DNA of 64,000 nt from Escherichia coli (GTDB taxonomy: Bacteria > Pseudomonadota > Gammaproteobacteria > Enterobacterales > Enterobacteriaceae). The stretch is from the NCBI RefSeq assembly GCF_050920415.1, contig NZ_CP169309.1; one strand, written 5' to 3'. Shown here one piece after another: positions 26,701-29,700 of the stretch (the first letter of the stretch is position 1; every line of letters begins with the position of its first letter). A program made the position numbers.

Positions 26701-29700
26701 CGGTGGCACTGGTTTTTGGTCGTGAGCGTGTCGGCTTGACCAATGAAGAGTTGCAAAAGTGCCATTATCATGTCGCCATTGCCGCTAACCCGGAATACAG
26801 TTCGCTGAACCTGGCGATGGCTGTTCAGGTTATTGCCTATGAAGTCCGTATGGCCTGGCTGGCGACTCAGGAGAACAGCGAGCAGGTTGAACATGACGAG
26901 ACGCCGTATCCGCTGGTCGATGATCTGGAACGTTTTTACGGTCATCTTGAACAAACGCTGCTGGCAACCGGCTTTATCCGTGAAAACCATCCGGGGCAGG
27001 TGATGAATAAGCTGCGTCGTCTGTTTACCCGTGCGCGCCCGGAAAGCCAGGAGTTGAATATCCTGCGCGGGATTCTGGCTTCTATTGAGCAGCAGAATAA
27101 AGGTAACAAGGCCGAATAACCGAGGTTGCCTGATGCGGCGCTTAACGCGTCTTGTCAGGCCTACATTGTACTGAACCCCTGGACGGATAAAGTGTTTACG
27201 CCGCACCCGACAACAGGTACAAACGCCACGATAAAAAAATGGCACTGAAGGTTAAATACCCGACTAAATCAGTCAAGTAAATAGTTGACCAATTTACTCG
27301 GGAATGTCAGACTTGACCCTGCTATGCAATACCCCCACTTTTACAATAAAAAACCCCGGGCAGGGGCGAGTTTGAGGTGAAGTAAGACATGAGACTGACA
27401 TCTAAAGGGCGCTATGCCGTGACCGCAATGCTTGACGTTGCGCTCAACTCTGAAGCGGGCCCGGTACCGTTGGCTGATATTTCCGAACGTCAGGGAATTT
27501 CCCTTTCTTATCTGGAACAACTGTTTTCCCGTCTGCGTAAAAATGGTCTGGTTTCCAGCGTACGCGGGCCAGGCGGTGGTTATCTGTTAGGCAAAGATGC
27601 CAGCAGCATCGCCGTTGGCGAAGTAATTAGCGCCGTTGATGAATCTGTAGATGCTACCCGTTGTCAGGGTAAAGGCGGCTGCCAGGGGGGCGATAAATGC
27701 CTGACCCACGCGCTGTGGCGTGATTTGAGCGACCGCCTTACCGGTTTTCTCAACAACATTACTTTAGGCGAACTGGTTAATAACCAGGAAGTGCTGGATG
27801 TATCTGGTCGTCAGCATACTCACGACGCGCCACGCACCCGCACACAAGACGCGATCGACGTTAAGTTACGCGCTTAATTTAACCGTCCTGTTTCGTGTTG
27901 CATCTGCGTTGACTGCACATACTCACTCCGGTCACTTACTTATGTAAGCTCCCGGAGATTCGTAAGTTTGTCAACTTGCTGAAACCCGAAACAGTTAGGT
28001 TAAAGATAACAAGATATTAGAATCAGGCCGGGGCGTCTCGCGCTCCGTAAACACGGTCGTACATCCAGCCGGTAGCCTGGTTCCTTGCATTGAGTGATGT
28101 ACGGAGTTTATAGAGCAATGAAATTACCGATTTATCTCGACTACTCCGCAACCACGCCGGTGGACCCGCGTGTTGCCGAGAAAATGATGCAGTTTATGAC
28201 GATGGACGGAACCTTTGGTAACCCGGCCTCCCGTTCTCACCGTTTCGGCTGGCAGGCTGAAGAAGCGGTAGATATCGCTCGTAATCAGATTGCCGATCTG
28301 GTTGGCGCTGATCCGCGTGAAATTGTCTTTACCTCTGGTGCTACCGAATCTGACAACCTGGCGATCAAAGGTGCTGCTAACTTTTATCAGAAAAAAGGCA
28401 AGCACATCATCACCAGCAAAACCGAACACAAAGCGGTACTGGATACCTGCCGTCAGCTGGAGCGCGAAGGTTTTGAAGTCACTTACCTGGCACCGCAGCG
28501 TAACGGTATTATCGACCTGAAAGAACTCGAAGCAGCGATGCGTGACGACACCATCCTTGTTTCCATCATGCACGTAAATAACGAAATCGGCGTGGTGCAG
28601 GATATCGCGGCTATCGGTGAAATGTGCCGTGCTCGTGGCATTATCTATCATGTTGATGCAACCCAGAGCGTGGGCAAACTGCCTATCGACCTGAGCCAGT
28701 TGAAAGTTGACCTGATGTCTTTCTCCGGTCACAAAATCTACGGCCCGAAAGGTATCGGTGCGCTGTATGTGCGTCGTAAACCGCGCGTACGTATCGAAGC
28801 ACAAATGCACGGCGGCGGTCACGAGCGCGGTATGCGTTCCGGTACTCTGCCTGTTCACCAGATCGTCGGTATGGGCGAAGCCTATCGCATCGCAAAAGAA
28901 GAGATGGCGACCGAGATGGAACGTCTGCGCGGCCTGCGTAACCGTCTGTGGAACGGCATCAAAGATATCGAAGAAGTTTACCTGAACGGTGACCTGGAAC
29001 ACGGTGCGCCGAACATTCTCAACGTCAGCTTCAATTACGTTGAAGGTGAGTCGCTGATTATGGCGCTGAAAGACCTTGCGGTTTCTTCCGGTTCTGCCTG
29101 TACGTCAGCAAGCCTCGAACCGTCCTACGTGCTGCGCGCGCTGGGGCTGAACGATGAGCTGGCACATAGCTCTATCCGTTTCTCTTTAGGTCGTTTTACT
29201 ACTGAAGAAGAGATCGACTACACCATCGAGTTAGTTCGTAAATCCATCGGTCGTCTGCGTGACCTTTCTCCGCTGTGGGAAATGTACAAGCAGGGCGTGG
29301 ATCTGAACAGCATCGAATGGGCACATCATTAATCGGTATCGGAATCAGGAGAATTTATAATGGCTTACAGTGAAAAAGTTATCGACCATTACGAGAATCC
29401 GCGTAACGTGGGTTCCTTTGACAACAACGACGAGAACGTCGGCAGTGGCATGGTGGGTGCACCGGCCTGTGGCGACGTGATGAAGTTGCAGATTAAAGTC
29501 AACGATGAAGGTATCATTGAAGACGCGCGTTTTAAAACTTACGGCTGCGGTTCCGCTATCGCTTCCAGCTCCCTGGTCACCGAATGGGTGAAAGGGAAGT
29601 CTCTCGACGAAGCACAGGCGATCAAAAACACCGATATTGCTGAAGAACTTGAACTGCCGCCGGTGAAAATTCACTGTTCTATTCTGGCAGAAGACGCGAT

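Follow-up and report, generated by a model that had tools for sequence, protein, structure and literature searches.

Control of the iscRSUA operon by RyhB is a textbook case in which a small RNA gives the parts of one polycistronic mRNA different fates, and the iscRS element, or iscR stability element, of Escherichia coli K-12 was reportedly described by Desnoyers et al. in EMBO J in 2009. RyhB pairs between iscR and iscS, and the iscR portion of the message owes its stability to a structure in the spacer (PMC11572966, PMC12533949); RyhB-dependent loss of iscSUA and accumulation of an iscR fragment have been shown by experiment for K-12 only (PMC12533949, PMC11572966). Here, we analyse a 64,000-nt stretch of E. 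coli DNA (assembly GCF_050920415.1, contig NZ_CP169309.1; hereafter, the window), in which the untranslated iscR–iscS spacer is 240 nt long (27878–28117), compared with 111 nt in K-12 and O157:H7, and in which the additional length is a copy of the ERIC repeat.

REP elements, reportedly described by Higgins et al. in 1982, are intercistronic mRNA stabilisers (e.g. malE–malF), 20–40 bp long, G+C-rich and a family separate from ERIC. As with REPs, a repeated palindrome between the cistrons of the isc operon could protect the upstream message from 3′ exonucleases, whereas the element in the window differs from them in being 127 bp long and of ERIC type. The ERIC repeats of enterobacteria, also named IRU and RU-1, are said to go back to Sharples & Lloyd in 1990 and Hulton et al. 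in 1991, and ERICs adjoining stop codons in Yersinia were reportedly treated by De Gregorio et al. in J Bacteriol in 2005. According to reviews, ERICs are co-transcribed and have orientation-dependent effects on mRNA stability and upstream mRNA (PMC2229807, PMC3184786). Our literature search found no paper linking an ERIC to iscR–iscS.

Composition of the iscR–iscS spacer

The spacer is a composite of two known things that adjoin, with no single long regulatory element, and the identity of both parts is near certain. Its 3′ part is the native iscRS element, which gave the one strong match of a covariance-model scan against Rfam, to the family RF01517 with 117.8 bits (gathering score 40, E = 2.4e-31) over model positions 1–110 of 110, and which is homologous to the entire 111-nt spacer of K-12. 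Its 5′ part is an ERIC insertion that begins at the first base 3′ of the iscR stop codon and is the sole reason that the spacer exceeds the length found in K-12 (Table 1). The native part shares with the K-12 element its position between iscR and iscS, all 110 model positions, the branched structure and the predicted RyhB site. It differs in that the K-12 spacer consists of the element alone, whereas in the window a 129-nt ERIC precedes it, and in that its first ~12 nt diverge, its closing helix is weaker and its first hairpin carries compensatory substitutions.

The ERIC in the window matches the primers ERIC1R and ERIC2 (sequences from PMC6066780) back to back at 18 of 22 positions each, an arrangement reached by none of 5,000 shuffles. 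The best relative of the insert in K-12 lies between ybhI and ybhJ and is a canonical ERIC, because it matches both primers at 22/22; in an nhmmer search it was collinear with the window element over positions 8–126 (E = 4e-15). Searching E. coli genomes with the 129 bp by blastn returned a median of 7 places per genome (range 1–12), almost all chromosomal and at ~70–73% identity, and the insert therefore belongs to a dispersed repeat family, although only one ERIC copy lies within the window. No copy 80–99% identical to the insert was present anywhere in 5,426 E. coli genomes, making recent transposition from within E. coli unlikely. The window element fits published accounts of ERIC/IRU repeats in its size, its terminal inverted repeats and a position that is intergenic and probably transcribed (PMC2229807, PMC3184786). 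Like those repeats, it is an imperfect palindrome, 127 bp long, that ends in inverted repeats, lies between two genes of one operon, has a primer-recognised core, is collinear with the canonical K-12 copy, is multi-copy, and is present or absent between strains; it differs in being only ~72% identical to other E. coli copies and in that a duplication of the TA target is not readable unambiguously at its junctions. It resembles the stop-codon ERICs of Yersinia, which we know through reviews, in abutting a stop codon between two genes that are probably co-transcribed and in its predicted RNA hairpin, and differs from them in that, between species, the isc site holds ERICs of either orientation.

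Set side by side, with slashes marking the junctions, K-12 reads GCGCTTAA/TAAAAAGAATTCAG... and the window GCGCTTAA/TTTAACCG...GGTTAAAGA/TAACAAGATATTAG.... Empty sites take the form TAA/TAAAAAG (K-12, O157) or TAA/AAGATAAAAAG (E. albertii and E. coli strain 33E), and the filled site TAA/TTTAACC...GGTTAAAGA/TAACAAG. On insertion, ERICs are described as duplicating a TA target, so that each end carries TA (PMC2229807, PMC3184786); the junctions here agree with a duplicated TA or TAA only if an A-run has gained or lost one A. Separately, the minus strand at 27882–28004 gave a weak, sub-threshold Rfam match to V_AS5, a Vibrio antisense RNA (129/129 model positions, 20.7 bits, E = 0.24), a family that might in turn represent an ERIC-like repeat.

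A first-pass annotation of the window had described an unusually long, structured, untranslated gap of 240 nt between iscR and iscS, and had named RyhB as the agent that uncouples iscR from iscSUA there under iron limitation. The length is exact, as given by the positions of the iscR stop and the iscS ATG; an in-frame GTG at 28094 would extend the iscS reading frame 5′, and the RefSeq annotation of identical DNA begins at the ATG. 'Unusually long' holds against K-12 and O157, but not among the Enterobacteriaceae sampled below, where spacers of 150–242 nt are the majority. The attribution to RyhB is sound for the 3′ 110 nt, with their RF01517 match and RyhB site, and does not extend to the extra length, which is the ERIC insertion. 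Within the window the surrounding genes, all with E. coli protein sequences, are suhB (minus strand), trmJ, iscR, iscS, iscU, iscA, hscB and hscA.

Table 1. Positions of genes, repeats and predicted structures at the iscR–iscS spacer (MFE, minimum free energy; ORF, open reading frame)
Feature	Position	Strand	Basis or remark
iscR coding sequence	27389–27877	+	162 amino acids; ORF and translation; identical DNA annotated iscR in RefSeq genomes
iscR stop codon TAA	27875–27877	+	
129-bp insertion relative to K-12/O157	27878–28006	+	127-bp ERIC/IRU imperfect palindrome (27878–28004) plus 2 bp (GA)
ERIC left terminal inverted repeat	27878–27902	+	Paired in MFE structure
ERIC right terminal inverted repeat	27980–28004	+	Paired in MFE structure
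Outer inverted-repeat arms	27878–27902 / 27980–28004		25 nt, 80% complementary
Conserved ERIC core	27921–27963	+	ERIC2 complement 27921–27942; ERIC1R 27942–27963; inner hairpin 27926–27957
Inner inverted-repeat arms	27926–27939 / 27944–27957		14 nt
A/U-rich linker GATAACAAGATATTAG	28005–28020	+	Predicted single-stranded, between ERIC hairpin and native structure; MFE structures
iscRS element (Rfam RF01517, 'iscR stability element'), native spacer	28007–28116	+	Covariance-model scan
Branched stem-loop within iscRS element	28021–28083	+	Same predicted fold in window and K-12
Perfect 8-mer inverted repeat CGTACATC / GATGTACG	28058–28065 / 28096–28103		
Best predicted RyhB pairing site	28091–28120	+	Covers iscS Shine-Dalgarno GGAG (28103–28106) and AUG (28118–28120)
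iscS coding sequence	28118–29332	+	ATG at 28118; ORF and RefSeq annotation

Folding of the spacer and the RyhB site

The whole 240-nt spacer folded at −82.1 kcal/mol (z −3.95), a value reached by none of 200 shuffles. Most of this signal came from the 5′ 127 nt, where the ERIC folds as one long hairpin (−45.1 kcal/mol, z −6.6); the 3′ 111 nt alone gave z −1.1 in the window allele vs z −3.1 in K-12. Three inverted repeats were found, so that the structured spacer with several inverted repeats noted in the first-pass annotation was borne out. The 8-bp example that it cited is present as sequence, but its pairing is not predicted to form. Perfect 8-mer inverted repeats arose by chance in 25% of 240-nt shuffles and 5.6% of 111-nt shuffles, and the pairing of CGTACATC with GATGTACG, absent from both the MFE structure and the Rfam consensus structure, was rejected for nested structures: constrained folding, which covers nested structures only, put its pair probability at ~1e-4 and the cost of forcing it at +6.6 kcal/mol. 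Both arms were invariant in all 58 species sampled, making covariation uninformative either way. As a pseudoknot, the two arms might still pair.

These results bear on the view that all 240 nt form one dedicated spacer for RyhB-driven differential stability, the 8-bp pairing included. The spacer is indeed structured overall, and its 3′ 110 nt truly are the RyhB and iscR stability element. However, the extra 129 nt belong to a dispersed repeat family, are lacking at this site in 91% of E. coli genomes and carry no above-background complementarity to RyhB, the improbable and costly 8-bp pairing does not help, and the invariance of its arms lends it no support from covariation. We consider this view very unlikely: the insertion is polymorphic and the insert belongs to a repeat family, which already goes most of the way to refuting it.

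RyhB pairing within the spacer, in line with the first-pass annotation, is predicted where the native element meets iscS. We scanned the RyhB seed region (nt 31–72; sequence from the NC_000913.3 annotation) along 27860–28200, and the best site, a duplex of RyhB nt 39–70 with 28091–28120, had a predicted energy of −23.9 kcal/mol that was reached by 3% of shuffled targets. Within it, GAGCAAUG at 28113–28120 is an exact 8-nt complement of RyhB CAUUGCUC and spans the AUG, and the predicted site is identical to that of K-12. The seed scan found no site above background inside the ERIC, where the best ones were weaker than the shuffle mean. Duplex prediction with the entire RyhB sequence was discarded, because the 110-nt duplex that it yielded was unrealistic and was matched by 17% of shuffles.

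From 28043 to the iscS start, the window carries a single difference from K-12 (28080). The branched stem-loop of the native element, predicted alike in both alleles, is a candidate for the protective structure of the literature. Its 28029–28047 hairpin has compensatory changes (K-12 CGGAGTG/TACTCCG vs window CGGGGCG/CGCTCCG), and that helix is therefore supported independently of the Rfam model; the loop of this hairpin varies across species. The inner helices of RF01517 are intact in the window allele. Its outermost 5-bp closing helix pairs the 5′ edge of the element, with the linker segment as 5′ strand, to the Shine-Dalgarno region; two of its five pairs are non-canonical, owing to divergence from K-12 and O157 within the first ~12 nt of the element, and the helix is missing from the MFE structure of the window but present in that of K-12. 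The linker itself has five differences from O157 (28010, 28014–28016, 28018) and four of these from K-12 (not 28014).

The ERIC forms a fold domain of its own, with only 0.62 base pairs expected with downstream sequence. The downstream fold is alike with the ERIC, without it and in K-12, and the predicted accessibility of the Shine-Dalgarno, AUG and RyhB site is 0.41 in all three cases. Within 27878–28117, no terminator-like site was found on either strand and no T-run follows either ERIC arm; nor was any sigma-70-like promoter found in the spacer on either strand, a weak negative since the scan also misses the known iscR promoter region. A very stable hairpin between two cistrons might be taken for an attenuator, a partial terminator or an internal promoter that uncouples iscR from iscSUA without RyhB. 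With neither T-run, terminator-like site nor promoter, and with iscSUA being essential housekeeping machinery in ERIC-bearing strains that are ordinary, successful lineages, a transcriptional role of this kind is extremely improbable.

From the independent fold, the unchanged accessibility and the lack of a promoter or terminator pattern, we infer that transcription of the operon runs through the ERIC and that RyhB can still uncouple iscR from iscSUA. The ERIC would most likely be transcribed within the iscRSUA mRNA and would fold alone into a long imperfect hairpin of about −45 kcal/mol, leaving the RyhB site and the protective structure unchanged. The branched structure of the iscRS element would protect the upstream iscR message, and RyhB, an iron-starvation small RNA, would pair at ~28091–28120 and trigger RNase E-dependent loss of iscSUA while iscR mRNA persists. 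Uncoupling would then proceed as it does in K-12, except that the iscR fragment would gain 129 nt, and the effect of the ERIC itself would probably be a modest change in the stability of the iscR 3′ end. Folding models make it likely that the ERIC leaves RyhB control essentially intact, and we hold this composite explanation as a whole, an iscRS element plus an ERIC with RyhB control as in K-12, to be highly probable.

Distribution of the insertion

A megablast search of 5,426 complete E. coli genomes with 27700–28300 matched 5,424 of them. The match extended over the full 601 bp in 490 genomes and over 472 bp, 129 bp less, in the others; the ERIC-bearing allele is thus present in 489–490 of 5,426 genomes (~9%) and lacking from ~91%. 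Genomes without it are 129 bp (some 125 bp) shorter at exactly the insertion point, and K-12, O157 and E. albertii have a clean empty site. Strains with the insertion include ATCC 8739, O26 strains RM10386 and RM8426, O103 strain RM8385 and O111 strain RM9322.

An alignment of ~6 kb from the window, ATCC 8739, O26, K-12 and O157 showed that the ERIC of the window does not differ from that of ATCC 8739 or O26 (0/129 in each), and the native iscRS element differs at 2/111 and 1/111 positions, respectively. The corresponding differences were 11/489 and 10/489 in iscR, 30/1215 and 26/1215 in iscS, and 77/1721 and 79/1721 in suhB–trmJ. Between K-12 and ATCC 8739, only 2/1368 positions differ in iscU–hscB, yet 13/111 differ in the native element, in addition to the presence of the ERIC. 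An identical insert in diverged backgrounds indicates that the ERIC-bearing spacer is much younger than those backgrounds. Judged from these alignments, the simplest reading would be that the allele spread by short recombination tracts, with strong constraint as a possible alternative cause of the identity.

E. coli strain 33E has a third spacer allele, of 115 nt (TAA/AAGA/TAAAAAG), like that of E. albertii, together with many closely spaced differences at the iscR 3′ end (window 27837–27877) and a different IscR protein accession. The 115-nt spacer of E. albertii and 33E begins AAGATAAAAAG, matching the right flank of the ERIC, and looks like an unoccupied ERIC site or, in 33E, possibly an imported tract.

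Two observations concern the sequence upstream. Across suhB–trmJ (25400–27120), the window differs from K-12, O157, O26 and ATCC 8739 at 67–82 of 1,721 positions (3.9–4.8%), compared with 1.2–2.2% among those four, and divergence of the window is lower further downstream (~1.8–2.5%), which suggests either a divergent lineage or a recombinant tract. The trmJ–iscR intergenic region (27120–27388) varies in length, from 269 nt in the window and ATCC 8739 through ~297 nt in O26 and O157 to 451 nt in K-12. In this region, especially at 27095–27244, the Rfam scan gave two weak matches below threshold to naRNA4, a REP-derived family, which hint at a REP cluster of variable extent 5′ of the iscR promoter.

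Beyond E. coli, we scanned species-representative genomes with a conserved 19-mer of the native element and recovered at least 78 loci; E. coli was not among the matches listed. Among those matches, 58 species had a usable iscR–iscS spacer and form the sample for the species counts given here. Spacers of 110–124 nt, with no hairpin after the iscR stop, were found in 16/58 species; 29/58 had spacers of 149–182 nt with a short hairpin (−18.6 to −33.5 kcal/mol), and 13/58 had spacers of 217–242 nt with a long-form hairpin. Among the long forms, ten are full ERICs that agree with the window in position and orientation (Citrobacter amalonaticus, C. werkmanii, C. youngae, Enterobacter asburiae, Phytobacter and others), and two are full ERICs in the opposite orientation. 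The nearest relative of the window copy among the matches listed is the copy at the same locus in C. amalonaticus (86% identity).

A profile search supported some of the short forms as ERIC remnants: Leclercia (E = 4e-10), Intestinirhabdus (4e-4), Citrobacter NCU1 (8e-4), Phytobacter massiliensis (3e-3) and Raoultella (~1e-2). Those of Leclercia, Citrobacter NCU1, P. massiliensis and Raoultella are demonstrably ERICs that have lost their centre. The same search gave no ERIC support for the short hairpins of Kluyvera, the Klebsiella oxytoca group, Salmonella arizonae/diarizonae, C. braakii and Lelliottia, whose link to ERIC comes from inspection only. Opposite orientations and differing insertion points indicate at least two independent insertions, at a site that behaves as a hotspot. 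Under the same species label, C. amalonaticus ku-bf3 and Citrobacter HRGM_0066 have the opposite ERIC orientation and a slightly shifted insertion point relative to C. amalonaticus AUH. In another comparison, the isc-locus ERIC is 98% identical between C. werkmanii/C. youngae and E. asburiae/Enterobacter RIT418, and the adjacent iscRS element 92%; such identity across genera reflects either the long-noted puzzle of ERIC conservation or recent transfer.

Passenger or selected hairpin

Several points weigh against regarding the ERIC as a near-neutral passenger beside an unaltered RyhB switch. A hairpin stands directly after the iscR stop in 42/58 sampled species, and its pairing is kept by compensatory changes across species, at 10 of 39 pairs. 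Across E. coli backgrounds that diverge by 2–4.5%, the 129 nt of the insert show no difference. On folding models, the weakened closing helix of the native element might make iscS translation or RyhB access somewhat different, and the simple promoter scan shares its negative result with a known promoter region to which it is blind. Finally, that the ERIC is co-transcribed, that RyhB control is preserved, and how large and of which sign any effect of the ERIC may be are what we infer, rather than what was observed.

The first of these points open the way to a different reading, in which the hairpin is a selected part of isc control and its presence or absence tunes the ratio of IscR to IscSUA. 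It could act as a second barrier to 3′-to-5′ exonucleases after RyhB-triggered cleavage, raising iscR mRNA, or, following the Yersinia proposal, terminating ribosomes could block its folding and expose an RNase E site, lowering iscR mRNA. Stable hairpins, 29 short and 13 long, follow iscR in most of the sampled species, and orientation-dependent effects of ERICs on upstream mRNA have been reported (PMC2229807, PMC3184786). In the 10 full-length copies of the same orientation, 97.2% of cells were in standard pairs and the double-change pairs numbered as given above, a result reached by none of 500 shuffles, while slid controls (partner shifted by 1–3 columns) gave 0–2 such pairs. Three compensatory changes separate the window copy from its closest relative, and the short forms of Klebsiella and Raoultella conserve their stems and vary their loops. 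The absence of any difference in the insert across diverged E. coli strains would also be expected under selection, but recent recombination explains it equally well.

Against a selected hairpin stand its absence from ~91% of E. coli genomes, from E. albertii and from 16/58 sampled species, and the fact that K-12 has working RyhB control but no such hairpin. The isc site is occupied by ERICs of either orientation, arguing against a strictly orientation-dependent role. The covariation is real evidence that pairing has been maintained, yet it falls short of demonstrating selection on the mRNA, because the copies may stem from different sources, because the terminal repeats may be kept for mobility through pairing at the DNA level, and because the antisense strand folds better than the mRNA strand in 8/10 species. 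A G-U asymmetry as a sign of selection on the mRNA strand was considered and rejected on this last result. Overall, a selected role for the hairpin is possible, if rather unlikely, and we would say the same of the wider proposal that presence or absence of the hairpin tunes the IscR to IscSUA ratio. Somewhat more doubtful again is its most ambitious form, that an exapted ERIC, full or trimmed and kept by compensatory changes, is a selected second isc stability element across the Enterobacteriaceae, whose presence or absence in E. coli, moved between phylogroups by short recombination tracts, sets IscR to IscSUA ratios under iron limitation.

The composite explanation, in which an ERIC lies beside an iscRS element that works as in K-12, requires no new class of element for annotation: the long spacer is explained, and its parts are ordinary and known, the insertion being a new copy of a known kind of repeat. 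The RyhB–iscRSUA mechanism was worked out on the 111-nt spacer of K-12, to which ~9% of E. coli genomes add a 129-nt hairpin, among them major non-O157 Shiga-toxin lineages (O26, O103 and O111, by our own classification) and the laboratory strain ATCC 8739, and most sampled Enterobacteriaceae have some hairpin at a position where K-12 has none. If the hairpin is without effect, the locus is a clean natural case in which a finely tuned regulatory spacer tolerates a mobile repeat. If it alters the stability of the iscR 3′ end, strains would differ in the rise of apo-IscR, and hence of Suf, under iron starvation; and were the exapted ERIC to prove true, the Suf switch and linked traits could differ between O26, O103, O111 and ATCC 8739 on the one hand and K-12 and O157 on the other.

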